A stretch of 64,000 nt of DNA from IMG/VR virus record IMGVR_UViG_3300042502_000594, positions 1,485 to 65,484 of that record; one strand, 5' to 3'. Positions 26,845 to 46,989 of the stretch are shown here, piece by piece. A model generated the notes under the pieces. That model ran no database searches, was not told the origin of the DNA, and saw only the letters and a list, made by a program, of their open reading frames with translations. Numbering within the stretch: the first letter of the stretch is position 1; every line of letters begins with the position of its first letter. The translations under genes and the position numbers were made by a program. Source of the stretch: a virus. Taxonomy: Duplodnaviria; Caudoviricetes.

Positions 26845-27052
26845 ACAAAAATGCTATATGTCTTTCGTGTACCGAGTACATCTCAGTGTCCTGTAGCTCA
26901 ACCTTTTCAATCTTACCTATAACGCAGGCCTTTTGGCCGACCTCTAGGTCAACCCCGTTTCCTACCGCCATTATGGTTACATCTATTTGCTTTGGCTGTC
27001 TCTTGTCAATGATCACAAAGACACGTCCGTCTGGTGGTCTCAAATTCGTCAT
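26837..27052 (-). CDS. Minimal GroES-like protein (71 aa)
   Basis: NLRPPDGRVFV...IMAVGNG...LEVGQK...YSVHERHIAF aligns by eye with GroES (NIRPLHDRVIV...LAVGNG...VKVGD...IMSESDILA). Confidence 0.65.
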   Translation of the reverse strand: MTNLRPPDGRVFVIIDKRQPKQIDVTIMAVGNGVDLEVGQKACVIGKIEKVELQDTEMYSVHERHIAFLYE

Positions 27053-27056
27053 GGTG

Positions 27057-27124
27057 CAAATATACTCAAAAACAACACAGTGTCAAATTATTGCTTGTAA
27101 ATAGTACTAAACAACGTATATTTG
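27057..27124. promoter_or_regulatory. Divergent Bacteroidota-type housekeeping promoters
   Basis: TATATTTG on minus (27064-27057) 4 nt before ATG 27052, and TATATTTG on plus (27117-27124) 4 nt before ATG 27129; matches the TAnnTTTG -7 consensus. Confidence 0.75.
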
Positions 27125-27128
27125 CAAT

Positions 27129-27320
27129 ATGTTTCTCCTCTCAATTATCTTAACTATTGTATCTATCTATCTGATGATTAAGAACTCTATTTACGGATGT
27201 GGCAAGCGGTGTTACAAGACCCGGAAAGAGGCTAAGGATCATTGTGATTACGACCAACAGGTTTATATGTGCTGGGACTGTGAAATGTGGCACGTAAAAA
27301 ATAATGAAGAAAATACTTGA
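27129..27320 (+). CDS. Small membrane-anchored Cys-rich protein
   Basis: N-terminal hydrophobic helix, then CGKRCY...YMCWDCEMWHV zinc-finger-like pattern; has its own promoter. Confidence 0.55.
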   Translation: MFLLSIILTIVSIYLMIKNSIYGCGKRCYKTRKEAKDHCDYDQQVYMCWDCEMWHVKNNEENT

Positions 27321-27339
27321 CAACCTCGCGTGGTTGTTT

Positions 27340-27460
27340 TATGTTTGCAAAATATATCCTGCCTCCCGTTTGTTAAAGAGCAACAGCAAACGGGGGTTAG
27401 GATAGGTAAATTATCTTTTACCTAATTAGGCCCGTAAAGTTGCTCTTACGGGCTTTTTTT
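27340..27460 (+). ncRNA. Structured leader/attenuator (kissing-loop element 1) upstream of the replication initiator
   Basis: TATGTTTG promoter 27340-27347; long hairpin 27355-27404 with loop AAAGAGCAAC; small hairpin 27404-27423; terminator GCCCGTAA-AGTTGCTC-TTACGGGC-T7. Confidence 0.7.
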
Positions 27461-27464
27461 ATTT

Positions 27465-28154
27465 ATGAATACAGGACAAATAGTAAAAGGGAAACGCACG
27501 CATGACTTTGCGATTATCCCAAATGAAATCTCGCAGTCAAAAGAACTGACCATGGAAGAAAAGGGCATGATGTGTTTCCTTCTTTCGCTCCCAGAGAACT
27601 GGGTTCTTTACAAAAAGAATCTTTACAATCAAATGCCAGATGGTAAACACGCAGTGGATAGGGTGTTTAAGTCCCTGCAAGAGAAGGGGTATATCCTAAG
27701 CTGCCGTCAAATAGACGTAAGTACAGGCAGAATGGAGGGGTGGAACCACATTGTTTACGACGAGCCTCAACTTGACCGAGATGCGGATTTACCGACATCC
27801 GGTTTTCCCGTTGTCGGTGAAACCCGTAAATCGGAAAACATCGATATATATAAAGAAACAAACATCTACAAAGAAACAATAACATATAAATACGCATTTG
27901 AGGATTTTTGGCTTGCATACGACAAGAAGGTGGACAAGAAACAAACCCTTGCTGTTTGGAATAAACTATCTGATGAGGACCGAACCCTAGCAGTTGAAGG
28001 CATGGGAAACCACAAGAGTGGTCGCGAGCGCAAATACTGGAAGGACCCGGTGCGCTATCTTCGTGATAAAAGGTGGGAGGACGAGACAACAACAACGAAC
28101 GTAAAACAAACAAACTATAGCTATGACCCAAATGATGCAAGGAATAAATGGTAA
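27465..28154 (+). CDS. Phage replication initiator/replisome organizer (HTH)
   Basis: FAIIPNE...LTMEEKGMMCFLLSLPENW HTH N-terminus and FEDFWLAYDKKVDK...YLRDKRWED C-terminus. Confidence 0.8.
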   Translation: MNTGQIVKGKRTHDFAIIPNEISQSKELTMEEKGMMCFLLSLPENWVLYKKNLYNQMPDGKHAVDRVFKSLQEKGYILSCRQIDVSTGRMEGWNHIVYDEPQLDRDADLPTSGFPVVGETRKSENIDIYKETNIYKETITYKYAFEDFWLAYDKKVDKKQTLAVWNKLSDEDRTLAVEGMGNHKSGRERKYWKDPVRYLRDKRWEDETTTTNVKQTNYSYDPNDARNKW

Positions 28155-30075
28155 GGTATCCATCTACAAAGACTTCAATGACCTGCAAGGACACACAATT
28201 AGTGTACTGGGCGCACTTGAACGAATTAGGACTGGAAAATCAAAGGCACTTGTTGAGAAGGCGAGGGAAGCCAAGACCAAGAAAGAGGCGGACGAGTTAA
28301 AAAAGAAACTCCCAGCAGTTTGTTTCAGTGGAACTTTTTCCAAAAGGAAGGATTCTGAGCTGATTGAACACTCCGGATACATCGTGTTGGACTTCGATAA
28401 CGTGGCGGATATGGCCCAAAAACGAAGCGAATTGTGTTCAGTGAGGTATATTACCGCTGTTTGGGAATCACCCTCAGGAAAGGGCTTAAAAGCGCTCGTC
28501 CAAATTGAGTGGAAAACAAAGCATAAGGAACACTTTGATGCTTTGATGGAGGAGATGCCCGACATTGACAAGACTGGTCGAAATGTTTCTCGCCTATGCT
28601 TTGAGTCGTATGATCCTCAAGTTTGGTATAACCCAAACGCTGAGGTATACAGCAAGTTGCCTGTAAAGAAAGAAGACAGGAGGTTGCCCCAACAGACAAC
28701 TACAGAGACTATTAACGACGACGACAAGATATTCCAAAACCTTCTAACGTGGATGACGTCCAAGGGTGATGCGTTCCGTGAAGGAGAAAGGAACCACTTT
28801 GTGTTCAAACTCGCAGCAAGCTGTTGCAGATTTGGGATGATGGAAGAGACGTGCTATAGCCTGATGATGATGCACGTTACCCCAGACTCTAGCTTTAGTC
28901 AGAAGGAGTGCAGGCAAGCCATTCGCAGCGCGTATAGGGCCAACATGAATCAGTGGAACACCGCTGAGTTTACTAAAGACCAACTGGTTACAAAGAGTAA
29001 CCACAAGGAAGTAGAGATCGTAATCACCGCAGAAGATGCGGAGAATATCGCCGCAGAAGATGTCATTTATGCGGAGGAAGTATTTGAACAGGCGTCTGAG
29101 ATTTATCACAAGGGCTATCAGGCGGCCATGCCGCTTGGCGTTCCGCTTCTAGACAAACACTTCAAAAGAGTCAAGGGAGAATTAACAATTGTTTCCGGAA
29201 TTGGAAACTACGGTAAGTCTTCTTTCATGAAGTGGGAGATGATATTCCGCATGGTCAGGTTCGGGGAGAAGGTTGCCATATTCACTCCTGAGGAATTACC
29301 TGCTGAACAGTTTTATCATGACCTAGTTGAAATTTACTTTGGTAAGGACTGCACTCCGAATAATTACCACAGGCCGAGTTACGATTCGTACAAGAAGGTG
29401 TACGAAATGATTGGTCAACACATCTTCATGGTGTACCCCAAGAACGTAAGCCCGACTCCTGACTACGTGAAAGAAGTCTTCCTAAGCATGATCATCAAGC
29501 ACGGAATAGACCGCGTTGTAATCGACCCGTTCAATCAGATGGCAAACGACTACACCAAGGGAGGTGGTCGAAGCGACAAGTACCTTGAGACGTTCCTTTC
29601 TGACTGCACAAGGTTTGCAAGGAAGAACAACGTGTACTTCGACATCGTTGTCCACCCGCACAAGATGAGGAAGGGAGACGACGGAAACTACCCATGCCCG
29701 GAGGTGTTCGACCTTGCAGATGGAGCGATGTGGAACAACAAGGCGGACAACATCATCATCTACCACAGGCCTGTTGCTCAGACAGCTCCCGAAAGTCCGC
29801 TCTGTGAGTTTCACTCCAAGAAGATCCGCAGACAGAAGATCGTCGGGATAAAGGGTTTCTTTGACTTTGAACTTGTAAGGTCTACTCGCAGGTTTATGTT
29901 TGATGGAGTAGATTATTTGCAGAGAGCCATAGACGGTCAGTACGTTCAGTCTAACATCGAAGAGCCAAAGCCCTCTGTAATCAAGCCAAACAGAAACTGG
30001 ACTGATTCTAAAGAAGCAAAGGAATGGAATGAGGAGCCAGGACACCCGAACGGGTATAGGGAGGATTGGGAATGA
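28123..30075 (+). CDS. Primase-helicase (VirE-N/BT4734-like + PriCT + SF4 DnaB/T7 gp4-like helicase)
   Basis: KKKLPAVCFSGTF, HSGYIVLDFD, SPSGKGLK, GERN; Walker A GIGNYGKS, VVIDPFN, VHPHK, W.NKADN. Confidence 0.85.
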   Translation: MTQMMQGINGKVSIYKDFNDLQGHTISVLGALERIRTGKSKALVEKAREAKTKKEADELKKKLPAVCFSGTFSKRKDSELIEHSGYIVLDFDNVADMAQKRSELCSVRYITAVWESPSGKGLKALVQIEWKTKHKEHFDALMEEMPDIDKTGRNVSRLCFESYDPQVWYNPNAEVYSKLPVKKEDRRLPQQTTTETINDDDKIFQNLLTWMTSKGDAFREGERNHFVFKLAASCCRFGMMEETCYSLMMMHVTPDSSFSQKECRQAIRSAYRANMNQWNTAEFTKDQLVTKSNHKEVEIVITAEDAENIAAEDVIYAEEVFEQASEIYHKGYQAAMPLGVPLLDKHFKRVKGELTIVSGIGNYGKSSFMKWEMIFRMVRFGEKVAIFTPEELPAEQFYHDLVEIYFGKDCTPNNYHRPSYDSYKKVYEMIGQHIFMVYPKNVSPTPDYVKEVFLSMIIKHGIDRVVIDPFNQMANDYTKGGGRSDKYLETFLSDCTRFARKNNVYFDIVVHPHKMRKGDDGNYPCPEVFDLADGAMWNNKADNIIIYHRPVAQTAPESPLCEFHSKKIRRQKIVGIKGFFDFELVRSTRRFMFDGVDYLQRAIDGQYVQSNIEEPKPSVIKPNRNWTDSKEAKEWNEEPGHPNGYREDWE

Positions 30076-30179
30076 CGAAAAAAACCATATCGGGTATAAA
30101 TTTAACAATTTTTTTCTTGCACAAAAGAAACATATATGCTACATTTGCGAATATAATCAATTAATTAATCATAAAAATT

Positions 30180-30812
30180 ATGGGATTAAATCAAGGTGGT
30201 TCATCAAACCGTACTTACCTCAGCATATCTGACGGTAAGATTGCTAGGCGAGTTCAAGAAGGAACAGCTGGCTCAATTAAGTGTAACAGCAAGGACGGCA
30301 CAAGCGTGTGGTACGAACAGCGATTTGCTTCGCTGTCTGGTCACATCACGGACGTATTCAAGCGCGTATCCGAAAAAGGATATGGAGACCAACTCTGCAT
30401 AGTTCTAAAGGATGGAGGAGAAGAATATCAAATCCAAATGCCTTGGTCTTCACGATACTCGTCAGGTTTTTTCTTATGTATGCCAAACATCGACGCAGGA
30501 AAGGAAATTACTCTTTCTCCGTGGTCAAAGCAAATTGATGGAAAAACTCGCACAATGCTTTATTTGCGCCATGGCCAAGAGGACATCAAGTGGGCATGGA
30601 CCAAAGACAACCCAGGCAACATGCCAGAAATGAAACAGATCAAGGTGAAGGGACAAGTTGTATGGGACGACTCAGAGCGCCAGGAGTTCTTTGAGAGGCA
30701 CCTCAACGACATCTTCCTTCCACAGGTAAAGGCTGTGAGTTCTGTAAAGAAATTAGACTCATACGCTGCTATAGCTCCTTCTGAGGACCCTGGAGACGAC
30801 TTACCATTCTAA
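30180..30812 (+). CDS. ssb: Single-stranded DNA-binding protein (putative)
   Basis: Acidic C-terminus ending DDLPF; next to the helicase; preceded by a TACATTTG box. Confidence 0.65.
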   Translation: MGLNQGGSSNRTYLSISDGKIARRVQEGTAGSIKCNSKDGTSVWYEQRFASLSGHITDVFKRVSEKGYGDQLCIVLKDGGEEYQIQMPWSSRYSSGFFLCMPNIDAGKEITLSPWSKQIDGKTRTMLYLRHGQEDIKWAWTKDNPGNMPEMKQIKVKGQVVWDDSERQEFFERHLNDIFLPQVKAVSSVKKLDSYAAIAPSEDPGDDLPF

Positions 30813-30878
30813 TCTTAACCAAGAGTCGTGGCGGGGGATAAACGCAGGTAAACCCGCCACGGCTTTAAACAAACGAAC

Positions 30879-31364
30879 ATGAGATACACATTCAAAGACC
30901 TAGTGGACCTTGTCCACGTAAACAAACGGAACGAGTTTACAAAAATTTACGAGTACTTACATAAGATAGACAACCCTCAGGAGAACGAAATTCTTGAGAA
31001 GGTTGGCAAACACTTCGAGGTTACACCTAAGGAGATCAAGGGAAGGAACAGGTACGCCGACGTTGTACTAGCAAGACAGATGTTCATGGCAACAATCAAG
31101 GTGTGTTCAACTAAAACCCTTGCCGAGGTTGCAAGGATCGTAGACAGAGACCACGCCACCGTTTGTCACGCCATGAAGACCATTCGCATGGACTACGACT
31201 ACAACCCGGCTAGAAGGAACAAGATAAGACACTTCATCGCCGACCTAGACCCAACAAGACAAGAACTATTATTAGACTTTTTAAATGAACGGAACCCCGA
31301 TATACTTGCCGCCTACTCCATCGACGCTGACCGAGTTACAGCACCTTCGGAATTTGAGGCATAA
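30879..31364 (+). CDS. DnaA C-terminal-like HTH DNA-binding protein
   Basis: ILEKVGKHFEVTPKEIKGRNRYADVVLARQ...TLAEVARIVDRDHATVCHA matches the DnaA domain IV signature. Confidence 0.8.
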   Translation: MRYTFKDLVDLVHVNKRNEFTKIYEYLHKIDNPQENEILEKVGKHFEVTPKEIKGRNRYADVVLARQMFMATIKVCSTKTLAEVARIVDRDHATVCHAMKTIRMDYDYNPARRNKIRHFIADLDPTRQELLLDFLNERNPDILAAYSIDADRVTAPSEFEA

Positions 31365-31551
31365 CCTCCTCATTCAGGACATGGAATACCCCAAGCTGGG
31401 TATACACAAGCCAAAGATTAAATACGACCGTGAAAAGTCTCTCATGCGTTTGATTAACGTAAGGCTGTACGAACTAACCGGAAATGATATGTATCTTTGG
31501 ATCAGCGGACACTTTAACGAACTTAAAAAAATAGAAGATGGGACGAATTGA
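31285..31551 (+). CDS. Hypothetical protein (88 aa)
   Basis: ORF overlapping flanking plus-strand genes. Confidence 0.5.
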   Translation: MNGTPIYLPPTPSTLTELQHLRNLRHNLLIQDMEYPKLGIHKPKIKYDREKSLMRLINVRLYELTGNDMYLWISGHFNELKKIEDGTN

Positions 31552-31816
31552 AATAAAAGACGCAAAGCGCACAGTAGACGGACAGAAGGTCAACGCATAC
31601 CGCGTCCGTACTATTGGAGACAACAACGAAATACTTCAGACCTCTGAGGTATTGAACACGATTGACAGCGTAAAGAAACATATCCGGGCAATGGCCCTTG
31701 CATGGAACAGCGAGGGGTACGCCGAGGTTGTAGACTGCACGTATCGCGGAAAGTTTGATGGTAAAATCATTGACCTTGAAGAGTACGACAAGCTAAAGTT
31801 TGAAACAATTTCCTAA
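31538..31816 (+). CDS. YegP/DUF1508-like protein
   Basis: YRVRTIGDNNEILQTSEVLNT...KKHIRAM resembles the YegP motif FRLKAxNGEIIATSEGY. Confidence 0.55.
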   Translation: MGRIEIKDAKRTVDGQKVNAYRVRTIGDNNEILQTSEVLNTIDSVKKHIRAMALAWNSEGYAEVVDCTYRGKFDGKIIDLEEYDKLKFETIS

Positions 31817-32222
31817 TGGACACCATTGAGTCTATCATGTACGTGCCATACAATGTGTGTGAGGGCGGCGAAGAAAAAATAATGTATATTTGCGTCCCTG
31901 CCACACTGGTAATCATGAGGAATCAAAAAGTCGAAAAATCACAATTTATATTTTGGAACTAAAAAAGTCATTCCCAGCCTACATGTTGGAACTTCCCAAC
32001 ATTACACTTACAGCATTCCTGTTTGCGTTCGTTATCGCGTTTGTGTTTTCCCTTTGGGAGAAGAACTACGCAACTGCGATTGCTTCGTTTCTAATCGTTG
32101 CATCCATCCTTCCAATTAAGTACTACATGTGGAAGAAGATAAAGGTGCAAGGCGATGACAACGAAAAAAAGCACAAAGTCATCGTAATCAAAAGAAAGTG
32201 AGCAAACTAAATTGTTTGTCGA

Positions 32223-32313
32223 TACATTTGCTGAGTTGTGCTTTTATAGCGCAAGTTCAGTTTGTTTTATTCATTTCGTTTGTGAAAACCGTCTCCTAAG
32301 CGAGGCGGTTTTT
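32223..32313 (+). ncRNA. Candidate small RNA (promoter, U-rich segment, terminator)
   Basis: TACATTTG 32223-32230; terminator AAAACCGTCTC-CTAAGC-GAGGCGGTTTTT 32285-32313; no credible ORF between them. Confidence 0.55.
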
Positions 32314-32356
32314 GCTTTTATGGTGATAGTTATTACATTTGCAAATATCTACCTTA

Positions 32357-33376
32357 ATGAAAAACAACGTACAGAACTATCGCAACATCTTAAACGACAC
32401 GCGAGACCTTAGTCAAAACAAAAAGATTGAATTAGAGTATGATAACGTAACGTCCGGGATCACACTTGACTCTTTTAAACGACAGTTTCTCTCCTGGAAG
32501 AAGAACAACAAAGTAGAACCAGTAAAGAAGGCCAGGATAACTCCAAAGGCCATCGCAAACGCATTCGAGGATATCATTAATGAGCTGATTCCCGACAGTA
32601 ACCCACTAGGGTTGCCTGACTCAAAGGAAAAAAGTTACAGCCCATATAAATTCCCAGTTAATCACAATGATATCCTATTTCTCACCGACATTCACGTACC
32701 ATATCACAACATTCCCGCCCTCACAGCGGCGCTCAAGTACGGACTTGAAAACGAGGTCAACACGGTCTACATCAACGGGGACCTCATCGACTTCTATGCG
32801 ATCAGCCGGTTCCAAAAAGACCCGCGCAAGAGAGACCTCGCTTCTGAAATCTATATGGCAAGGGAGTTCCTCTACACACTGCGGAAGCTGTTCCCTACTC
32901 AAGCAATATACTTCAAGGCAGGAAACCACGACATTCGCTGGGACCACTACCTGATCAACAACGCGTCAGATTTAGTTGGGATTGAAGAATTCTCCTTGGA
33001 ATCCATCCTGCATCTCAACCAGCTCAACATTACCTTCATCCCAGACAAGCAGCTTGTAAGAATGGGCAAGCTAATAGCCCTGCATGGTCACGAGTTTGGG
33101 TCAAGCATGTTCAGCCCGGTGAACATTGCCCGTGGACTTTACCTCCGGGCCAAGGACAACGCAATCTGCGGGCACCACCACCAGACGTCGGAGCATACCG
33201 AGCCAAACATCAACGGCAAGGTTACGACCTGCTGGTCGGTAGCCTGTTTGTGTGAGCTGCACCCTGACTATATGCCGATCAACAAGTTTACTCACGGCTT
33301 TGCACACGTGAAAGTGTTTGATAATGAGGAGTTTGAGGTTACAAACTACCGGATTGTGAACGGCAAGATTAAGTAA
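32357..33376 (+). CDS. Calcineurin-like metallophosphoesterase
   Basis: DIHVPYH, NGDLIDF, GNHD, HGHE and GHHH motifs; ATG 32357 follows the TACATTTG box at 32334-32341. Confidence 0.9.
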   Translation: MKNNVQNYRNILNDTRDLSQNKKIELEYDNVTSGITLDSFKRQFLSWKKNNKVEPVKKARITPKAIANAFEDIINELIPDSNPLGLPDSKEKSYSPYKFPVNHNDILFLTDIHVPYHNIPALTAALKYGLENEVNTVYINGDLIDFYAISRFQKDPRKRDLASEIYMAREFLYTLRKLFPTQAIYFKAGNHDIRWDHYLINNASDLVGIEEFSLESILHLNQLNITFIPDKQLVRMGKLIALHGHEFGSSMFSPVNIARGLYLRAKDNAICGHHHQTSEHTEPNINGKVTTCWSVACLCELHPDYMPINKFTHGFAHVKVFDNEEFEVTNYRIVNGKIK

Positions 33377-33454
33377 TAGCTGTAACATTTTTATGCACGT
33401 TTTTGTTACAGGACGTGTACATTTTTTTCTGTATTTTGCATAACAGGATGTGCA

Positions 33455-33697
33455 ATGGAGAACCCAAGGATCAAATACAGGAAGTTAGGCAGGGAAAGGG
33501 CGCGTGGCCTTTACCATGAGGACGGTCTTATTGAGATCGATCCAAGACTCCCTGCAAAGGAACACCTTGAGGTAATTATTCACGAATATCTTCACCACGA
33601 GTTCAAACACTGGGAGGAAAGCCATGTTGAAGAATACGGGAGAAAAATCTCCGAGTTCTTATGGGCATTAGGTTACAGACGCGTAAATTTGGAATGA
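33455..33697 (+). CDS. Small HExxH zincin-like protein (IrrE/ImmA-like)
   Basis: GLYHEDGLIEIDPRL...EVIIHEYLH...EESHVEE. Confidence 0.65.
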   Translation: MENPRIKYRKLGRERARGLYHEDGLIEIDPRLPAKEHLEVIIHEYLHHEFKHWEESHVEEYGRKISEFLWALGYRRVNLE

Positions 33698-33698
33698 C

Positions 33699-33950
33699 AT
33701 GAGAGTTATCCTTCCGATCGTTGTGGATACAGACGAAAAAAGAATCGCAGAGATGGTTGGCTCTACGCCAGACAAGTTCGAATGCGAGCCGGCTGTGTTT
33801 TATTCAATAGACAACGTGCGTCCATACATGAACTTTAAAAACCTGTGCATGGTAAGCAGTGGTGGAGACGACTTTATTGTCGGACTGTCGATGGAGGAGG
33901 TAGACGAGATCATTATGGACGACTTTACATTCACGTTTAGCGCAAATTAA
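33699..33950 (+). CDS. Hypothetical protein (83 aa)
   Basis: ORF 1 nt after the previous stop. Confidence 0.55.
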   Translation: MRVILPIVVDTDEKRIAEMVGSTPDKFECEPAVFYSIDNVRPYMNFKNLCMVSSGGDDFIVGLSMEEVDEIIMDDFTFTFSAN

Positions 33951-34009
33951 TGTTAATTTTCTTGCATATTGCCACGCGTGTATTATATTTGCCAACATAA
34001 ATAAACGAA

Positions 34010-34468
34010 ATGAACGATTTAGAAAGAAAAAAACGACTGATTGTGACCGCCCTAGGCGCACAACAGATCTACGCGCAGTGTCACGACGAGTGTGTGGACC
34101 TAAAGTTCTTCAAGCATGACCTGAAGATGCACTCCAAGAACCTAATTGCCAAGCTAGAGCGTGAGCTGATGCCGATCTTTGGCGTTCTTGGTAACGTGGA
34201 CGGCGGGGACGCATATCTAAACGCTGTAAGCTCGATGGAGGACACCTTGCAGAACCTTGCGACACTCCCTGTGGAGTACTGGGCATTAGTAAACCAAGGG
34301 ATTTATGACATAAAACAACTAATTCATGAAAAGAACCAAGAAGGGGATAACGGAGTACCTGGCGGAGAGGATAATGGAGTGGAATCCGAAGGTGGACAGC
34401 CAAGCGATAGCATGGACGCTGAGCCGGAACATACCTCAGCTCAAGAGCATGAGGCAGGCGGACATTGA
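34010..34468 (+). CDS. Hypothetical protein
   Basis: Upstream TATATTTG box and A-rich leader; low-complexity tail overlaps ORF 34326..34583. Confidence 0.55.
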   Translation: MNDLERKKRLIVTALGAQQIYAQCHDECVDLKFFKHDLKMHSKNLIAKLERELMPIFGVLGNVDGGDAYLNAVSSMEDTLQNLATLPVEYWALVNQGIYDIKQLIHEKNQEGDNGVPGGEDNGVESEGGQPSDSMDAEPEHTSAQEHEAGGH

Positions 34469-34683
34469 AACACTTCTTCAGGCCTGCAAAGATGATCTTT
34501 CCCAATGGTCCTATACCGGTCACGACTCCCCTTGGAGACGGATACATCCTCTACATAACACCGAACGGCTTCCTGGAGAATGACGAGATAACGGTCGTGC
34601 TGTCAAACGGCGGCGAAATAAGGCACTTCTCTAGCGACCAGGTGCGTGTGTGGAAAAACTCAACCTACGGGATACATGAATAA
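34465..34683 (+). CDS. Hypothetical phage protein
   Basis: PIPVTTPLGDGY...ENDE...GEIRHF, protein-like composition; exact start uncertain. Confidence 0.55.
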   Translation: MKHFFRPAKMIFPNGPIPVTTPLGDGYILYITPNGFLENDEITVVLSNGGEIRHFSSDQVRVWKNSTYGIHE

Positions 34684-34818
34684 CTACGTGATAACGATAT
34701 GGGACGGCGAGAAGATCGTCCACAACGCAAGGGCTAAGGCCAAGAGTCCTGAATCTGCCAAGACAAAGGCTTTAAGTGACTGTTTGAAGATGGATAAACT
34801 AATGGGAACTGAACGTAA

Positions 34819-35046
34819 ATGGTTAAGCTACAGATGGGACATACAAGCGACAATAAGCCGATAAAATACGCCTCAGACCTACTCAATGAAGTGGTTATGG
34901 ACATGATTATGCGTGAAAAGAAGGGTTTTTCTCAGTATAATCACACAATGGACCGCACGGACCTGACCAAAGACGAGTGGCTGCAACACGCATACGAGGA
35001 GGCGCTCGACCTTGCGCTGTATCTCAAGAAGATTATGAACTCATAA
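34819..35046 (+). CDS. Small all-alpha NTP-pyrophosphohydrolase-like (MazG-like) protein
   Basis: KGFSQYNHTMDRTDL...WLQHAYEEALDLALYL with an EExxD motif. Confidence 0.55.
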   Translation: MVKLQMGHTSDNKPIKYASDLLNEVVMDMIMREKKGFSQYNHTMDRTDLTKDEWLQHAYEEALDLALYLKKIMNS

Positions 35047-35055
35047 ACAAACGAA

Positions 35056-35337
35056 ATGAAAAAGAAGACACAGTACACAATCTTTGCCTATGAGCCAGGC
35101 ACTGAGGTTTATGCCATCTCGATGTGGCATGATAACGGAAAGCCAACCGACCACCTCGCAATCTACAAGGCCAAGGTGGCGTCGTGGAGCTATGACGCGG
35201 AAGAGAAAGACGTTCTCTACTACCTTGAAAGCCCCGGCGGCAAGTGGTGGGGAGACAGTATCAAAGGGGAGTATGTTTCAGAATCTTTTGAAGAGCTTTC
35301 TCAGTACGCTAAAGAACTCTGGACAAATGGGAAATAA
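35056..35337 (+). CDS. Hypothetical protein (93 aa)
   Basis: A-rich leader ACAAACGAA before the ATG. Confidence 0.6.
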   Translation: MKKKTQYTIFAYEPGTEVYAISMWHDNGKPTDHLAIYKAKVASWSYDAEEKDVLYYLESPGGKWWGDSIKGEYVSESFEELSQYAKELWTNGK

Positions 35338-35427
35338 AAACAACCTCCGCAGAGACATTGAACACGTCGTCCCCTACCTGATCTTACTTGCAATTTATGC
35401 AGCAATAATGCTAATACTATTTTCGCT

Positions 35428-36492
35428 ATGAGTGAAAAGGTAAAGTACATTTCCGTCTGTAGCGGAATAGAAGCAGCCTCCGTTGCGTGGCACGACATGG
35501 GATGGGAACCCGTGGCATTCTCAGAGATTGAACCGTTCCCCTCAGAGGTTCTCAAAATCAGATTTCCAAACACCCCGAACTGGGGTGACATGACTAAATT
35601 TAATACTTGGCCAAATGCAAATGTCAATCTTCTCGTTGGAGGCACACCATGCCAGTCCTTCTCAGTCGCAGGTCTCAGACAAGGTCTTAAGGACCCAAGA
35701 GGCAATCTCATGCTCACGTTTCTTGCAATCGCTGAGCGTTACAAACCTAAGTGGATTGTCTGGGAAAACGTCCCCGGAGTCCTGTCATCTAACGGAGGAA
35801 AGGATTTTGGTTCCTTCCTCGGGGCGTTGGGGGAGTTGGGGTACGGGTGGGCCTATCGGGTACTGGACGCTCAATGGTTCGGAGTGGCCCAAAGACGTAA
35901 ACGTGTGTTTGTTGTCGGATGTCTTGGAGACCAACGAGCTGCCGCAGAGGTTCTATTTGAGTCAGAAAGCGTGTCAAGGAATCCTGCGCCGAGCAGAGAA
36001 AAGAGGCAAGCAGTTACCAGAGCAACTGAAGAGAGCGTTGGAAGCGGTAAGTGGTGGGACGGAGGAGACACCTCAGCAACCCTAACTACAAGAAGTGGCG
36101 GACAGTACATGCCCGACAAAGACAACTTCCAAGCAGTAATTCAGCCAACCATAATAGACCGTGCTGCATTCAACCAGGGCGAGAATGCTCAATATGAACC
36201 AAAGATTGAGGAGTCGGAAACCATGCCTTCACTTGTTGCGAGGGGTCCACACGCTGTTGCCCACACGGCTTCACGCATAAGCAATCCTCCGATGGCTATC
36301 AGACGCCTTACCCCGGTGGAGTGCGAAAGGCTTCAAGGCTTTCCCGACAATTGGACAAAGATCCCGTGGAAGAAGAAACCAGCAGAGGATTGTCCCGACG
36401 GACCAAGATACAAGGCGTGTGGGAACTCAATGGCCGTTCCTGTAATGCGGTGGATTGGTCAGCGAATAAACAAAAAAACCGACCATTTCTGA
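35428..36492 (+). CDS. DNA (cytosine-5)-methyltransferase
   Basis: Motif I SVCSGIE, IV GGTPCQSFS, VI WENVPG, VIII AQRRKRVF, IX RRLTPVECERLQGFP, X YKACGNS. Confidence 0.95.
   Translation: MSEKVKYISVCSGIEAASVAWHDMGWEPVAFSEIEPFPSEVLKIRFPNTPNWGDMTKFNTWPNANVNLLVGGTPCQSFSVAGLRQGLKDPRGNLMLTFLAIAERYKPKWIVWENVPGVLSSNGGKDFGSFLGALGELGYGWAYRVLDAQWFGVAQRRKRVFVVGCLGDQRAAAEVLFESESVSRNPAPSREKRQAVTRATEESVGSGKWWDGGDTSATLTTRSGGQYMPDKDNFQAVIQPTIIDRAAFNQGENAQYEPKIEESETMPSLVARGPHAVAHTASRISNPPMAIRRLTPVECERLQGFPDNWTKIPWKKKPAEDCPDGPRYKACGNSMAVPVMRWIGQRINKKTDHF
35615..36085 (+). CDS. Nested alternative-frame ORF, M.EcoHK31I beta-polypeptide-like
   Basis: 156 aa in the +1 frame inside the MTase; RWGSWGTG...YWTLN.SEWP...CLLSDVLET...YLS..AC.GILRRAEKRGKQLPEQLKRAL resembles the beta subunit of heterodimeric C5-MTases. 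Confidence 0.65.
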   Translation: MQMSIFSLEAHHASPSQSQVSDKVLRTQEAISCSRFLQSLSVTNLSGLSGKTSPESCHLTEERILVPSSGRWGSWGTGGPIGYWTLNGSEWPKDVNVCLLSDVLETNELPQRFYLSQKACQGILRRAEKRGKQLPEQLKRALEAVSGGTEETPQQP

Positions 36493-36500
36493 TCGGCTTT
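36471..36500 (-). terminator. Intrinsic terminator of the small basic protein operon
   Basis: Minus strand GCCGATCA-GAAA-TGGTCGGT then T run; overlaps the MTase stop. Confidence 0.7.
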
Positions 36501-36540
36501 AGTCGTAACTACAACGGTCCCTGCACGAGACCGTGTTTCT

Positions 36541-36804
36541 TTAGCAGTCCCACTTTCTCAAAGCTAAAGCCTTGCGAGTGGGTTTGCCATTTGGTTTCTT
36601 CATAGGACCTGGCATACCACCCATTCTAGCACAAAAAGACTTCCTCCGAGCAGCGCTCTTGGGAGACTTCTTTGCTTGCTTGGCCGATACTGGGGGCTTC
36701 AATGTGCCTCCTGTTTCACGCTTGTACGAGGCTCGGCCCTTGGCGTTTAGACCGCCTTCTGGGTTCTTGCCCTCCTTTCTTTGCCATGCTGCTGTCCTTG
36801 CCAT
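36541..36804 (-). CDS. Small basic phage protein (DUF6321-like)
   Basis: WQRKEGKNPEGGLNAKGRASY...RRKSFCARM...ALRKWDC. Confidence 0.75.
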   Translation of the reverse strand: MARTAAWQRKEGKNPEGGLNAKGRASYKRETGGTLKPPVSAKQAKKSPKSAARRKSFCARMGGMPGPMKKPNGKPTRKALALRKWDC

Positions 36805-36959
36805 TATTTTTTCTTTTTAGCGGTCTTTTTTGACTTCTCAAAGTCCTTCGATGTAGGTGCGCCTGGTGTTCCGGGCTTCCTCATCTTCTCGCCTGATCCC
36901 TCAGCTATTCGCTTTCTCTTGGCGTGAATGTTCGCATATAGTCCTGCCTTTGCTTTCAT
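36804..36959 (-). CDS. Small basic phage protein (51 aa)
   Basis: Hand-translated MKAKAGLYANIHAKRKRIAEGSGEKMRKPGTPGAPTSKDFEKSKKTAKKKK; coupled on both sides. Confidence 0.75.
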   Translation of the reverse strand: MKAKAGLYANIHAKRKRIAEGSGEKMRKPGTPGAPTSKDFEKSKKTAKKKK

Positions 36960-37075
36960 CCTTGTCCTCTTGATGGTTTTACATTCTTGTCCATTGGTGA
37001 CTTGCGCTTAAAAGGCTTCCCATCCTTGCGCTTGCCAAACGTGGTCTTAGACCCGGTACCCATCGCCTTAGCCAT
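36956..37075 (-). CDS. Small basic peptide (39 aa)
   Basis: Hand-translated MAKAMGTGSKTTFGKRKDGKPFKRKSPMDKNVKPSRGQG; ATGA overlap with the next gene. Confidence 0.65.
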   Translation of the reverse strand: MAKAMGTGSKTTFGKRKDGKPFKRKSPMDKNVKPSRGQG

Positions 37076-37226
37076 GGCTACCCCCTTCACACTTACACTT
37101 CTCCGCCTCCTTGGCCTCCATCTCCATCCTTTCCATCTCCGAGCGACGTCTGTTCTTTACCATCTGCTTGGCAGGTGTATACCCCCCAAACATGTTATCC
37201 ATAAAGTCCTGTGACGCGTATTTCAT
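37068..37226 (-). CDS. Small hypothetical protein
   Basis: MKYASQDFMDNMFGG...; ATG 37226 follows a TATATTTG box (37247-37240). Confidence 0.55.
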   Translation of the reverse strand: MKYASQDFMDNMFGGYTPAKQMVKNRRRSEMERMEMEAKEAEKCKCEGGSHG

Positions 37227-37277
37227 AGCCTTTTTTTTACAAATATACACGGAGTCATGAAATATCCAACAAATTCC

Positions 37278-37349
37278 GTAAACTCATAATGGTTGTAAAC
37301 TCATAGTGGTTGGGGTCAATAAACTATAGACTCATCCTGGTTGGGGTCA
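37278..37349. repeat. Three imperfect 17-nt direct repeats, two followed by GGGGTCA
   Basis: GTAAACTCATAATGGTT 37278-37294, GTAAACTCATAGTGGTT 37295-37311, ATAGACTCATCCTGGTT 37326-37342. Confidence 0.8.
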
Positions 37350-37692
37350 CCCCCCACACTGCCCCTGCCCTGTCCCCGTCCCGAAGTCGATTCAGCAAAG
37401 GGGGTGGGGTGCTTGTCTTGCCGCCCCTGTCCATGCCGCGGGTATTTTGTCTCCACCGCGTGTAACAACCGCATTTTTGCGCTGATAGTCAGCACGTTAT
37501 ATTTCGCGTCCCATGCGTGGCGTATTTATGCCAGACCTTTTCGGGGTATTTCAGGCAGTATTTGCCCGTTTCGAGGGGTGCGCGGGGTATGTATTGTTTC
37601 ACGTCCAGGCCGCACATTCTTATTTAGAATGATTCCAGATAAGCATTTCAGCCCGTTTAAAGGCATGTAAACAGCCCGCCTACCGTAGATAC

Positions 37693-37990
37693 TGCCCGCG
37701 TAGATTGCCCGCGTTTATTGGGCTTCCTTGCAGTTGTGGAGGGGTGCGGGGCTTTTGGTTGGGGCAACCCGAGAAAGGGGTTTTTAATCGTGTGTGCGCG
37801 CATGAGTGCCTTAACTGCTCTTTGTCTATTCTCTTACATTCTCTTTGAGTACTTGGGCTATCCGTTGCAGATTTGCCCGCGTGAGGGGTTGCCCTTTCCG
37901 GGTTGCTTCCATGTTTGCCTCGTCTATTTGTTTCCTGTCTCTTTACCCTTGTGAAATACTGCGCGGATCCCTTTGACTATTTGCCCGCGT
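37693..37990 (+). repeat. Four dispersed TGCCCGCGT repeats
   Basis: Exact copies starting at 37693, 37706, 37874 and 37982. Confidence 0.8.
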
Positions 37991-38136
37991 CCAGGCTATC
38001 CGACCAACACAAACCAACACCGTTGAACCCTTCTCAAATATACAACAAAAGCCGGCACGAAAAAAATTTTTTTTCACTTAAATCATTGAAAATGAGCAAG
38101 TTTTATTTAGAATGAGTATAAATAACGGTTAGGGTA

Positions 38137-38166
38137 TTGACAAGAAATAAAGTTAGACTATCTTAG
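38137..38166 (+). promoter_or_regulatory. Probable early promoter
   Basis: TTGACA 38137-38142 and TATCTTAG 38159-38166, ahead of the first small plus-strand gene (ATG 38186). Confidence 0.6.
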
Positions 38167-38185
38167 CCGAAAATTTAGAAACAAC

Positions 38186-38383
38186 ATGAAAAAAGGCATT
38201 CAGTACACACACTATCTAGCGGGCGACATTCTCGAAATTATCAACGGGGCGCACCTTGCAAAAGAGCTGATGAATGAAGGCAGCGCGGAAGCCGCCGAAT
38301 GGCTAAGATACACCATTGAGCGCGCCCAACAACTAAGCGAAAAACTAGCTCGTTTGGATATAATCAACGAAATGAAATACTAA
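38186..38383 (+). CDS. Small early hypothetical protein
   Basis: First ORF after the early promoter; AC-rich leader. Confidence 0.65.
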   Translation: MKKGIQYTHYLAGDILEIINGAHLAKELMNEGSAEAAEWLRYTIERAQQLSEKLARLDIINEMKY

Positions 38384-38407
38384 ACACATCAATAATAAAT
38401 TAACACT

Positions 38408-38698
38408 ATGAGTAACATCGTAACCCCTCAAGATTTTACACGTATCAACAACGACGTAAACGGAAACCCGCGCTATGTGGTACACTTCACCCAACTAGTA
38501 AATGAAGCCGACCGCGAGACCGCGAAGAACTGCGCGCCTCCGTTCGGTTATATTTCGGAACTTTACAGTATAGCCGTAAAAAAGGCCAATAAATTAGGCG
38601 GGCGCAAATACCATACGAAAAGCTACGGCGGCGGCATTGTATTCCAGTCTTACAACCTCGACAACCTGTGCGAACACATCAACAACATCAACAAATAA
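38408..38698 (+). CDS. Conserved small early phage protein
   Basis: FTRINNDVNGNPRYVVHF...GGRKYHTKSYGGGIVFQSYN; function unknown. Confidence 0.7.
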   Translation: MSNIVTPQDFTRINNDVNGNPRYVVHFTQLVNEADRETAKNCAPPFGYISELYSIAVKKANKLGGRKYHTKSYGGGIVFQSYNLDNLCEHINNINK

Positions 38699-38721
38699 CA
38701 ACCTCTTAAAATTTCAACACT

Positions 38722-39015
38722 ATGAAAAACATTTTAGAAATTCACAACGTTAGCGACTCAATAGCATTTTGCGAAGCGCAAGGGCTAGCCATTTGTTTTC
38801 AAGCATACGCCGACGAGTGCGCGGGCGAATCAATTATGAACGTCGGCTTTAATTCAAACAGCGGGTATGTATACATAGCCCTCGAAAATGGTATTTCGAT
38901 ATGCTCAATGTTGGGGCGCGGCGTTGAGTATCTGGTGACCAACTTTGAAGACGGCGAAGAGACGTTTTTAGAAAGTTACAGCGAAGCGGAGCAGTTGCTC
39001 GCTTCAATGTATTAA
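38722..39015 (+). CDS. Acidic early hypothetical protein
   Basis: GFNSNSGYVYIALENG; AC-rich leader. Confidence 0.65.
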   Translation: MKNILEIHNVSDSIAFCEAQGLAICFQAYADECAGESIMNVGFNSNSGYVYIALENGISICSMLGRGVEYLVTNFEDGEETFLESYSEAEQLLASMY

Positions 39016-39091
39016 ACGGGCAATGGTGCACGAGCGGGTTCGATTCCCGCTCCTGTTTCTAAAATTTCAACAACAATAAAAATTCAACATC

Positions 39092-39304
39092 ATGAACACC
39101 AATTTACAAACATTCGAATGCCATGTAAGATTAGCCCAACACAGCAACGGAGGGATAATCTTCGCGGACGTATTCTACACACACACAGGCAACCGATTCG
39201 GAGCCATAAGAAAGGGAATTTTACAAGCCCGCAAATACAACGCTGACGAGGTTAGAAGGGTGAACATCTTGCACCAATATGCCCCTACGTATTTTGAAAT
39301 ATAA
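39092..39304 (+). CDS. Small early hypothetical protein
   Basis: ORF with AC-rich leader. Confidence 0.55.
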   Translation: MNTNLQTFECHVRLAQHSNGGIIFADVFYTHTGNRFGAIRKGILQARKYNADEVRRVNILHQYAPTYFEI

Positions 39305-39324
39305 AAACAAAAATAGACCACCAC

Positions 39325-39492
39325 ATGACACTATCAACCAACACGCAGTGCCTACTATCCAACGGCAAAGTAGGAACATTCAAAGGTTACAAAGAAACAC
39401 CGTCCGGTTTATTGCTTCGGTTCATATACCCCGAACGCGGGCGAATGATAGAGCAGACCTTTTCAAAATACGAAATAATCAAGAAAGTATAA
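39325..39492 (+). CDS. Small early hypothetical protein (55 aa)
   Basis: Hand-translated MTLSTNTQCLLSNGKVGTFKGYKETPSGLLLRFIYPERGRMIEQTFSKYEIIKKV. Confidence 0.55.
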   Translation: MTLSTNTQCLLSNGKVGTFKGYKETPSGLLLRFIYPERGRMIEQTFSKYEIIKKV

Positions 39493-39509
39493 CCAAACAC
39501 AAAAAAGCT

Positions 39510-39785
39510 ATGTATCAGAATTTCAACTTCCAAACTACGTTGGGCAATGTATCGCTAGACCTTTACAAGCCAACCAAAGTGAATTTATGCGGCATAAACT
39601 ACGCGAGCGAGTTACAGGTGCAAGTCTGGACGAACCACGAAGAAACAGCCGGGTATATCGTGTACGCAAGCATTCCCAAAAAAACAGCGAGATACAGCCG
39701 AATCAAAAAACACTACATCGACGAGGCGAGCGCGAAAAAGTACGGTCGTCAGTTAATCAGCGAAATTTTACCAATAATCAAATAA
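39510..39785 (+). CDS. Small early hypothetical protein (91 aa)
   Basis: C-terminal part of track ORF 39279..39785; ATG 39510 has an A-rich leader. Confidence 0.55.
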   Translation: MYQNFNFQTTLGNVSLDLYKPTKVNLCGINYASELQVQVWTNHEETAGYIVYASIPKKTARYSRIKKHYIDEASAKKYGRQLISEILPIIK

Positions 39786-39794
39786 TTCAACACC

Positions 39795-40070
39795 ATGAGC
39801 AACGAAAGATTTGCGCGGATATGCTCCGCAACCAACAAAGGCATGAACGAAGGTTTCCTGTTCGAAGAATCTCTAATGTACTTCATTGAGAAGGAAGACG
39901 CCGAACGCTACGCAATCGAAATTGGCTATACCGACCTAGACGAGGCATACGACGACGGCGCATACTGCTATACCGAATGGGACATTGAAGATGAGGGCGA
40001 GTGGTATGAGAAGCACGAAGGCGAATGGTACGAATGCACAGATGAAGAAAAAGTAAAATACAACCAATAA
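39795..40070 (+). CDS. Highly acidic early protein
   Basis: About 27 D/E in 91 aa by my count; many aromatic residues. Confidence 0.7.
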   Translation: MSNERFARICSATNKGMNEGFLFEESLMYFIEKEDAERYAIEIGYTDLDEAYDDGAYCYTEWDIEDEGEWYEKHEGEWYECTDEEKVKYNQ

Positions 40071-40081
40071 AATTAAAAACC

Positions 40082-40303
40082 ATGTTTCAAGTAACAGTAA
40101 CACGAACAACAACCGGTGAATGTATCTACAATGATGAATTCGCCACCATAGGAAAGGCATACAACCGCTTTGCGGAGTGGTGCGAAGATTATTCATACAT
40201 CATTGAAGAAACAAGCGAGGAAGAATTCAATGCAGGCGGCTTTACTGCCGGGGGTAGGGGCTTCGATTACACAATAGAACTAAAACAAGTAACTCAAGAA
40301 TAA
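40082..40303 (+). CDS. Small acidic early protein
   Basis: ORF with A-rich leader. Confidence 0.6.
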   Translation: MFQVTVTRTTTGECIYNDEFATIGKAYNRFAEWCEDYSYIIEETSEEEFNAGGFTAGGRGFDYTIELKQVTQE

Positions 40304-40327
40304 ACAACAATTAAACACTTCAATACA

Positions 40328-40855
40328 ATGACAACGCAACAACAAAACATCATTGACGCACTAACCGACGAGTTCACACGCATCAACAAGGCGAGTGCAA
40401 CCAAAAAATCATTCAACCTCATCAATGTTGATGCCCTACAAGACAAAACAAGGGCTCAAAAAGAGTTCAAAGAACTCTCAAAGCAAGACCTTGCGACCTG
40501 GCAATTAGCCGCCTACGCTGAAATGGAACGCATTATCGAACTATTAGTAAAAGATTTACCCGACCATGTAAGGGTTGAGAGGTACGATGAGCGCATTGGC
40601 AAGTACAAGTCACCCGAAATACAAATACGACACGAAAGTGTTAGCCCAAGAGCGCATTGCGATGATGTAGTTTCAATTAGAGTGAAGATTGATTTTTGTA
40701 GGAGGTACAATGAATACGAGATGGGTTTTGATTTCGGTAAACGATTATTATACACAACAAGTGAAACAGGCTGCATGAGTGAATTTGATACAATCGAAAA
40801 AGCCGTTAGCCACATAAAATTCCAAGAAGGACTACGCCAAAAAGTATTACGATAA
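40328..40855 (+). CDS. Early hypothetical protein (175 aa)
   Basis: ORF with AC-rich leader. Confidence 0.65.
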   Translation: MTTQQQNIIDALTDEFTRINKASATKKSFNLINVDALQDKTRAQKEFKELSKQDLATWQLAAYAEMERIIELLVKDLPDHVRVERYDERIGKYKSPEIQIRHESVSPRAHCDDVVSIRVKIDFCRRYNEYEMGFDFGKRLLYTTSETGCMSEFDTIEKAVSHIKFQEGLRQKVLR

Positions 40856-40897
40856 TAATTAAACACAACAACAACCAACAAATAAAAAATAAACAAC

Positions 40898-41392
40898 ATG
40901 CCAAACCACGTAATTCACCGCCTGTACATTCATGGCGACAACCAACAAGAAGTTAAATCATTCATTCGCGGAGAAGCAGCGATAGACTTCAACAGGATTA
41001 TTCCAATGCCGGAGGATCTGAATGATACACCCGCCCCGACCCCAATGAAGACCGAAGAGGATATAAAGAAACACCACGAACTGATGCAAAAGTATGGAGT
41101 ATCTAATTGGTACGACTGGAGATTGAGTAATTGGAACACAAAGTGGAATGCCTATAACATAGAAGAAACCGAGCATTACATCCAATTTCAAACCGCATGG
41201 AGCACACCCCTTGCAGTAATTGAAAAGCTCAGTTTGTTATTCCCTGAAAATACCTTTGAGGTATCATTTGCCGACGAAGATTTAGGATATAACTGCGGAA
41301 GCTACATGTATCAAAACGGCGAGCGCATAAGCGAAGAGCAAGGAGACATGGCCTGGGCTTGTGAGCTATGGGAATACGAACTAGAATCGTAA
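40898..41392 (+). CDS. YubB/DUF1281 ferredoxin-like domain protein
   Basis: MPNHV...DFNRIIPMP...WYDWRLSNWNTKWN...FQTAWSTP. Confidence 0.85.
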   Translation: MPNHVIHRLYIHGDNQQEVKSFIRGEAAIDFNRIIPMPEDLNDTPAPTPMKTEEDIKKHHELMQKYGVSNWYDWRLSNWNTKWNAYNIEETEHYIQFQTAWSTPLAVIEKLSLLFPENTFEVSFADEDLGYNCGSYMYQNGERISEEQGDMAWACELWEYELES

Positions 41393-41576
41393 ACAATTAG
41401 CTTACAAACGATGATAAACAAAAAAACAACCGCCCAGATGCTCGATATATATGAGCGAATTGTGGCTGTAATTGCCGCGATAATCTTGATAGTCGTACTA
41501 CTATCATAAATTAACAACCATTAACAAGTGGGTGCAATACTTAGAACTATATTGCACCCACATTTAAAACAACACT

Positions 41577-44204: not shown

Positions 44205-44216
44205 TAATCAAACCAA

Positions 44217-44435
44217 ATGAAAATACAAATCGACACCAAATTCTCCGTAGGAGACACAATCTTTTTCATCGATGATGACAAGATTAAATTCGCAGTAATC
44301 TACAAGATGGAAATTACTATCGAAGAACACGAACACAGAACGTATCTATTTGCGAGAGACCAAGACAGAAACGTATCGGTAGTTCCGGAAAGAAGAGCAT
44401 TCATATCAAGAGAACAACTAATCCAATCACTATGA
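44217..44435 (+). CDS. Hypothetical phage protein
   Basis: MKIQIDTKFSVGD...FISREQLIQSL. Confidence 0.65.
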   Translation: MKIQIDTKFSVGDTIFFIDDDKIKFAVIYKMEITIEEHEHRTYLFARDQDRNVSVVPERRAFISREQLIQSL

Positions 44436-44665
44436 GAATCCAAATAGAAAAGAACGTACCAGCTCCCAAGCACAGTACAAGATCGGGCAAGTACCCATTC
44501 AAGGACATGGTAGTGGGAGATTCATTCTTCATTACGGATGAAAACCCAGAGCCCATACGCAAGAAGATATCAGCAGCCGCTTGTATGTTCTGCAAGAAGA
44601 ATGACAAATATAAATTCAAGACTCAGGTCTTAGATACCGGAGTCAGGGTATGGAGGGTACAATGA
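44432..44665 (+). CDS. Small putative DNA-binding phage protein
   Basis: IEKNVPAP...KYPFKDMVVGDSFF...GVRVWRV. Confidence 0.7.
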   Translation: MRIQIEKNVPAPKHSTRSGKYPFKDMVVGDSFFITDENPEPIRKKISAAACMFCKKNDKYKFKTQVLDTGVRVWRVQ

Positions 44666-45096: not shown

Positions 45097-45296
45097 ACCT
45101 TGGACTCATTCAAAAGAAAAGACAGAGAAAAGAAACAAGTCAAGAAGAAACCTAAAGAGAAGAAAAGAAAAAGCCTCCCCCCGTGAAAAACAAACTACCC
45201 CGCCCCACAAAGGGGCAGCTACCCGATCCAACATACTCGCGTATGAAGTTTGCCTCTTGCACCGACAGGGCTGATTCGGATAGGTGGGAAACGGGT

Positions 45297-45412: not shown

Positions 45413-45480
45413 TGGCTACAAAAATGTAAAAGTCAAAAAAAATAATTGCATAAAAACAACACATAAGTTATCTTTGTAAA

Positions 45481-45747: not shown

Positions 45748-45750
45748 ACA

Positions 45751-45984: not shown

Positions 45985-45997
45985 AACAATTTGACGA

Positions 45998-46981: not shown

Positions 46982-46989
46982 GATAGCGT

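Follow-up and report, generated by a model that had tools for sequence, protein, structure and literature searches.

A conserved candidate small RNA gene in a phage genome with complementarity to the start codons of two phage genes

A short unit at 32223-32319 on the plus strand of a phage genome has the layout of a small RNA gene, in which a TACATTTG promoter box is followed by a 5' hairpin, a U/G-rich single strand, and an intrinsic terminator. Comparison with related phages suggests that it is a real, conserved, and previously unannotated RNA-like gene with two credible targets among the genes of the phage itself, which start at ATG 34010 and ATG 35056. The unit is probably a functional RNA, and the chances are about even that it acts in trans as a phage small RNA that represses these two starts. 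The window, which is the whole stretch of 64,000 nucleotides that was analysed, corresponds to bases 1485-65484 of a virus record of 65,484 bp, which is complete and has direct terminal repeats.

The gene starts of the window come from simple ORF calling. These calls give a minus-strand block (1-27 kb), a plus-strand block (27-48 kb), and a second minus-strand block (48-64 kb). According to PHROGs, the plus block contains replication and DNA-metabolism genes, including a replication initiator, a primase-helicase (ATG 28123), a metallo-phosphoesterase (32357-33376), a DNA methyltransferase (35428-36492), and a Cas4-like nuclease (43209-44204), all on the plus strand. A protein encoded inside the replication module (30879-31364, plus strand) contains a DnaA C-terminal helix-turn-helix domain (PF08299, E 3.6e-17). 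Translation in Bacteroidota initiates without a Shine-Dalgarno (SD) sequence. The original prediction had assumed leaders without SD motifs, and this was borne out for this phage, where an SD-like word occurs in 8 of 83 start regions, the same as background (0.096 versus 0.111 for random 16-mers). The start regions of the phage are A-rich. Together with the enrichment of the TAYATTTG box, A-rich starts without an SD excess point to a Bacteroidota-type host. Window DNA is present in 24 sequencing runs, 23 of which are DNA runs from lake water or freshwater. The one RNA run, X24 (word share 0.11), contains short contigs of relatives over 27000-46999 and is uninformative on strand, ends, and small RNA. 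A contig of a relative in this run skips 270 nt at 45486-45757, which indicates that some relatives lack most of the 88-aa gene at 45481-45747. A blastn search of 31500-33500 against the phage database gave no match.

The window contains 19 copies of TAYATTTG where 5.25 are expected, and none of 100 shuffles reached 19. Twelve of these copies are intergenic, at 4-90 nt ahead of a gene start on the same strand, five are inside ORFs, and two (32223 and 57274) are orphans. Because 12 copies precede genes, TAYATTTG is considered a working promoter element of the phage. The consensus TAnnTTTG is described as the -7 element of Bacteroidota promoters (PMC7366714). A TTTG at the usual -33 distance from the TACATTTG box was not found.

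The -7 box TACATTTG of the unit (32223..32230) is of the Bacteroidota type TAnnTTTG. Transcription would start about 5 bases past the -7 box, and with this distance the 5' end is predicted at about 32234-32237. The box is followed by a 5' hairpin, TTGTGC/GCGCAA with a 7-nt loop (32236..32254), by an unpaired U/G-rich stretch (32255..32285), and by the intrinsic terminator (32286..32319), whose stem pairs 32286-32295 with 32302-32311 and leads into a T tract. Both hairpins are defined by fold and covariation, and the terminator also by a terminator scan, in which 32282-32315 (plus strand) was the longest stem within 28-38 kb, with 14 pairs, six of them G-C, and a T tail. The 14-mer TTCATTTCGTTTGT (32270-32283) is unpaired in the predicted fold. 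It contains the core CATTTCGTT (32272-32280) with the anti-start CAT at 32272-32274, and in 23 of 27 variants the minimum-energy fold leaves this core single-stranded, with a P(unpaired) of 0.77-0.99. The plus strand of 32223-32320 (98 nt) folds into two hairpins at -35 kcal/mol (z -6.53), which was equalled by none of 200 shuffles, and the minus strand of the unit folds less well (-19.5 kcal/mol, z -2.83). The original prediction described a promoter-to-terminator unit of about 75 nt with an unpaired segment. Such a unit was confirmed as conserved and RNA-like on the plus strand, at about 80 rather than 75 nt; its length would be nearer 80-85 nt if the RNA starts about 5 bases after the box. 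An inverted repeat, CAAAC-N6-GTTTG (32203-32218), reaches from the end of the upstream gene to just before the -7 box in many relatives, not in all.

Conservation was investigated with the neighbouring phosphoesterase as bait, for which IMG/VR gave 64 loci. The unit occupies the same place in 34 of them, and a diverged unit is found in five more (L046, L047, L049, L050, and L052), where the phosphoesterase is 59% identical. Five of the 64 loci end at a contig edge, and 20 have coding sequence up to the phosphoesterase gene and no unit. The diverged units have the same layout, with TACATTTG, another hairpin (GCACAC/GTGTGC, positioned as in the main clade), a U-rich stretch with TTTCGTTTTGTTTG, and a terminator. 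In L275/L278 the box reads TATTTTTG. When metagenomes were searched with the 34010 protein, the unit was present in 26 of 42 loci. A scan of IMG/VR with the seed pattern gave 45 stretches, of which 35 are the unit, one of them new (L123); the other ten are chance matches in a repeated coding stretch of one large phage. The same pattern matched five times in 185,579 species genomes, in each case by chance and without the unit architecture, and no bacterial genome with the unit was found among them. A looser pattern for members with other seeds returned at least 116 stretches, and 61 of 80 listed loci were scored by the model, known contigs being left out. L194, which scored 27.9 bits among the matches listed, is just a promoter and a terminator, and the weak model matches L072, L082, and L068 are generic T-rich stretches with terminators. 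The covariance model finds one copy of the unit per genome. Rfam, with the C4 antisense RNA included, has no match in the whole window.

Among 26 distinct main-clade variants, all eight columns of the -7 box are invariant, as are 24 of the 31 columns of the unpaired stretch. In the hairpin loop (0/4), the terminator loop (0/6), and the tail (0/8), no column is invariant. An invariant box and single strand with drifting loops and tail form a profile that, as judged from the alignment, is typical of a small RNA gene. The stems pair in 97.6% of 452 cells, compared with 39.9-55.3% when the partners are slid. In an alignment that was fitted to the model and hence leans towards structure, three pairs changed on both sides, and the covariation score was reached by none of 500 shuffles. 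The two top pairs of the 5' hairpin covary (UA/GC/UG and UG/UA/CG), and the terminator covaries as CG/UA/UG; the terminator covariation is already present in a plain MAFFT alignment. Many of the pairs are G-U, which become A-C mismatches on the minus strand, and this indicates that the constraint acts on the plus-strand RNA.

The unpaired stretch has exact complements at several starts on the plus strand. A 14-nt complement covers ATG 35056 (35047-35060), 12-nt complements cover ATG 34010 (34003-34014) and ATG 43209 (43203-43214), and a 9-nt complement ends one base before ATG 30879 (30869-30877). All four had been reported by the original prediction and were found as it described them. An 11-nt complement at 38366-38376 had not been listed there; 38366 is not a gene start, because its ATG opens only MKY*. 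With up to two mismatches, the 14-mer occurs eight times in the window against 0.99 expected, and none of 100 shuffles reached eight. In an exact-match test of the seed (32256-32285) against 95 start regions (-25 to +15), the longest match was 14, the top-three sum was 38, and three matches had 12 or more nucleotides. These three values were reached by 39, 7, and 1 of 2000 dinucleotide shuffles and by 10, 0, and 1 of 2000 mononucleotide shuffles, respectively. The 95 real start regions were also matched one by one against the rest, and not one of them equalled the seed on longest match, top-three sum, or 12-mer count.

The prediction also required that the matches be enriched over an A-rich background, and here the exact-match counts exceeded those of the shuffles, whereas the duplex energy did not. 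With RNAduplex and 94 start regions of an older gene set without 35056, the minimum was -18.8 kcal/mol against a shuffle mean of -19.5 kcal/mol, and 306 of 500 shuffles were as extreme. This lack of enrichment is attributed to the fact that any U-rich 30-mer makes long weak A-U duplexes with A-rich leaders. AAATGAA is a gene start at 7 of its 18 occurrences in the window. The landing of matches on starts is partly built in, since the reverse complement of the seed resembles an ordinary start region. The match statistics within one genome are therefore suggestive, not decisive.

The first candidate target is a 152-aa protein encoded from ATG 34010 on the plus strand, which is the first gene after a TATATTTG box at 33984. 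AACGAAATG lies on this start in 28 of 30 unit-bearing loci, although the protein has diverged to a mean identity of 72%. The two exceptions, L007 and L013, read ACAAACGATATG, which is 12/13 complementary. Among 12 gene families, the -7..-1 stretch is best conserved at this start (0.99), with the protein among the more diverged; other start regions are well conserved too, with 0.95 (31538) and 0.91 in two other families. Against the seed of its own genome, the 34010 start ranks 3, 2, 2, 1, 4, and 4 among 83-103 start regions in six genomes. A palindrome, CCACGCGTG (33972-33980), immediately precedes the TATATTTG box and is conserved in G001-G003. It may serve as an operator, and it is not enriched in the window (11 versus 7.9 expected).

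The second candidate target is a 93-aa protein encoded at 35056-35337 on the plus strand, where the complement spans the whole 9-nt gap after the preceding stop. The predicted duplexes reach -21.5 kcal/mol for 35056 and -16.6 kcal/mol for 34010. The 35056 start carries AACGAAATG in 17 of 28 loci, six of them as tandem AAACGAAATAAACGAAATG. It reads AACAAATGAATATG in nine loci, which leaves 9 nt of complement shifted to the 5' side of the seed, and it has other forms in two. Against the seeds of their own genomes, the 35056 starts rank 1, 1, 12, 6, and 3. The 35056 frame has 78-90% amino-acid identity over 91-93 residues in four relatives. An overlapping frame of 113 aa (35090-35431, plus strand) has just 42-69% identity in four relatives and was rejected as a shadow frame, even though it ends with an ATGA overlap on the methyltransferase start. 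The true gene leaves about 90 nt of non-coding DNA before 35428. Pfam and PHROGs contain no family for the 34010 or the 35056 protein. For the 34010 protein, AlphaFold predicts helices throughout and a disordered acidic tail, and at a mean pLDDT of 50.4 the model is too poor for a fold search.

Two other starts were rejected as conserved targets. The match at 43209 is present only in the window and is absent from G001-G004, and CGAAATG lies on the 30879 start in only 2 of 33 loci (L027 and L063). The suggestion that one small RNA serves a gene set is thus reduced to the two conserved targets, 34010 and 35056, as the 43209 and 30879 matches are lost in relatives. A leader, CTTTTTTAACATTCAACGAAATG, precedes the nuclease (window 43009-43214, plus strand), a 100-aa ORF (G001 7445-7486), and a 70-aa ORF (G005 ~17210-17235). 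A conserved 71-aa ORF (43025-43240) has its 3' end over this leader, and a second seed-complementary box in the leader, CAAACGAAAT (43170-43179), has also been retained in G001 and G003.

All 23 distinct combinations of seed and 34010 start from IMG/VR and metagenomes have 9-14 contiguous pairs across the AUG, with G-U counted. The complementarity between the unpaired core and the 34010 start region, as originally proposed, is therefore kept in every lineage that has the core. The seed core and the target motif are both nearly invariant in these alignments, which is co-conservation and not compensatory change. Covariation between seed and target appears weakly present. Four in-register target changes preserve the pairing and three or more disrupt it; most transitions facing a U/G-rich strand leave it paired in any case. 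The pairing is preserved by a C-to-U change opposite G in L275/L278, by an A-to-G change opposite U in L024 and another in L030, and by a U-to-C change opposite G in L006. In G005, seed and start region both differ from the main clade. Its 34010 homologue ranks 4th of 101 by ungapped match and 6th by energy, and no exact complement of 10 nt or more was found on its called starts.

Another diverged lineage, L289, was found by alignment of the 34010 protein in metagenomes. Its element keeps the box, the hairpin, and the terminator, and the CATTTCG core is missing. Its 34010 homologue starts elsewhere, without AACGAAATG on the AUG, and no start-region complement of 8 nt or more was found within 7.3 kb. 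The joint absence of the core and of AACGAAATG would fit the pairing idea. Since the element persists without the core, its basic role may not need anti-start pairing. In L289 (3498-3530), ATAAACGAA, which are leader words of 34010 in the main clade, form codons 3-5 of the homologue; the 34010 start codon thus appears to have moved between lineages.

In the proposed mechanism, host RNA polymerase would initiate a few bases past the TACATTTG box and make an RNA of about 80 nt that opens with a protective 5' hairpin, continues as about 30 unpaired U/G-rich bases, and stops at its own terminator. As this terminator also ends the transcript of the upstream small membrane-protein gene, the 3' end of that transcript may be a second source of the seed. 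The core 3'-UUGCUUUAC-5' would pair with AACGAAAUG (-6 to +3) of two early mRNAs, those of 34010 and 35056, which lie on the same strand 1.7 and 2.8 kb downstream, in helices of 9-14 bp. The leaders are very short, with about 14 nt for 34010 and the 9-nt intergenic gap for 35056. As they also have no SD, such a helix would cover all that a ribosome can grip and block initiation. Both targets share the transcription unit of the methyltransferase, so the RNA could limit or time the operon from the 33984 promoter.

An alternative, which we consider unlikely, is that the unit is a real small RNA with its main job elsewhere. Its U/G-rich strand (GUUUGUUUU ... GUUUGU) would bind many A/C-rich leaders of phage or host, or a host protein, and the 34010 and 35056 matches would be secondary. 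The invariant stretch of about 26 nt indeed exceeds the 9-14 nt that the two targets would engage, and about 14 invariant single-strand bases are unaccounted for by pairing with them. All three lineages have YTTGTTT and GTTTG in common, whereas the CAT core is not shared by all of them. Per genome, 10-15 of about 90 start regions contain AAACAA, where about 2 would be expected, and shuffled U-rich seeds bind leaders equally by energy. The leader of the primase-helicase contains TAAAACAAAC / AAACAAACT (28102..28116, plus strand), which complements the 5' half of the unpaired stretch, and a 10-mer of it is kept in G002 and G004. This complement is a lead only, as the A/C-rich leader type is common here. 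A main role elsewhere does not explain why exact matches of 12-14 nt are rare among shuffles, or why relatives retain them on the same two genes. We give a rather low probability to a viral 'anti-leader' riboregulator, in which the U/G-rich strand would address many SD-free A/C-rich leaders of the phage, and perhaps of the host, with the AACGAAAUG genes as the tightest clients.

It is also improbable that the element acts in cis, either as the 3' end and terminator of the membrane-protein gene or as an attenuator that gates read-through into the phosphoesterase gene, with a protein binding the single strand. The terminator is 85 nt past the stop (32201) of the upstream small membrane-protein gene (31983-32201) and must also end its transcript. 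A cis role would further agree with the constant position of the unit between the same two genes, with the L289 element that lacks the anti-start core, and with the best Rfam score over 32150-32400, which belongs to a leader family and is far below threshold (23.7 bits against a gathering score of 55). A plain terminator, however, leaves the invariant -7 box and the invariant unpaired columns unexplained, and under a cis role the start-codon complements would be chance matches. The phosphoesterase gene does not need read-through, since a conserved TAYATTTG box of its own lies 15 nt ahead of its ATG. The adjacent membrane-protein gene was also considered in a type I toxin-antitoxin test, where no seed complement of 9 nt or more was found at its 31983 start; the only match near this gene is 10 nt between a hairpin arm and 32167-32176.

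There is little reason to regard the motif TTCATTTCGTT as a DNA site that a phage protein, such as the DnaA-type helix-turn-helix protein of 30879, would bind in either orientation. The motif does occur in both orientations, the module encodes DNA-binding proteins, and the copy at 34010 is just after a promoter box. At genes, however, every copy takes in the ATG in sense orientation, no promoter box is near the 35056 copy, and the 43209 copy is about 190 nt past one. The reverse copy falls precisely within the single-stranded segment that separates two covarying, strand-specific hairpins, and no site cluster of the origin kind was found. It is hardly credible that a minus-strand mini-ORF, MNKTN*, has its leader and start in this segment, or that the segment is a functionless relic of an inverted gene start: the minus strand does resemble a normal start region, ACAAACGAAATGAATAAA, but the mini-ORF is not conserved (one-base insertions give MK* in L006, L021, and L022, and seven variants read MIKTN*), there is no minus-strand gene nearby and no minus-strand TAnnTTTG box in 27057-35742, the G-U pairs fail on the minus strand, and a relic would not stay invariant while loops and flanks drift.

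Several known RNAs can be compared with the proposed trans-acting small RNA. Lambda OOP and P22 sar, two phage RNAs, base-pair with an mRNA of the phage at its start or close to it; they are transcribed opposite their target and are fully complementary to it. The unit, in contrast, is on the same strand as its candidate targets, distant from them, and partly complementary. The c4 RNA pairs through short complementary segments at the ribosome-binding region; it is processed out of the leader of the operon that it targets, and in its proteobacterial host it masks a Shine-Dalgarno site. In the immI region of P1/P7, c4 is described as a phage RNA that acts in trans on a downstream phage gene of the same strand (PMC8201110). 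The unit resembles c4 in that it would make a short phage RNA with short complementary segments at the ribosome-binding region and no full cis-antisense overlap. Unlike c4, it has a separate promoter box and would pair over the AUG without an SD, with targets 1.7-2.8 kb away behind other promoters. GibS of Bacteroides thetaiotaomicron is described as an intergenic small RNA with its own start site and an intrinsic terminator, whose conserved unpaired seed pairs across the start codons of SD-less mRNAs and represses them (PMC7366714). An unpaired conserved seed complementary across start codons without SD is thus shared by the unit and GibS as described. GibS is depicted as host-encoded, with a 5'-end seed spanning 30-50 nt and metabolic targets, whereas the unit is viral, has its seed between two hairpins and candidate targets among the phage's own early genes, and shows no sequence likeness to GibS. 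VpdS of vibriophage VP882 and PreS of lambda are presented as phage-genome small RNAs that regulate host or phage mRNAs post-transcriptionally; they differ in being described as Hfq-dependent and from Proteobacteria (PMC12197685). The unit belongs to neither c4 nor GibS by sequence or model score.

To our knowledge, the Bacteroidota are a phylum without Hfq or ProQ, and we know of little exploration of RNA regulation in this phylum. Literature searches at the level of abstracts found no paper on a small RNA of a Bacteroidota phage, and the main text of a 2025 review of phage small RNAs contains no words beginning with Bacteroid or Flavobacter (PMC12197685). The system is compact: it comprises a single short candidate RNA and two short leaders, and seed and target already differ among natural variants. 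Repression of 34010 and 35056, if borne out, would show a virus timing its early genes at the level of translation in Bacteroidota-type hosts, and it would provide a portable pair of repressor and leader for Bacteroidota genetics. If the anti-leader reading were true, a phage would here exert global control over translation in a phylum that is not known to have Hfq or ProQ.

The second orphan box, which reads TATATTTG, lies at the beginning of a plus-strand segment (57274-57350) between minus-strand genes. About 45 nt past this box there is a hairpin, GAGGGCGG...CCGCCCTC, together with TGTGTTTTC. This segment could be another short transcript or an 18-codon ORF.
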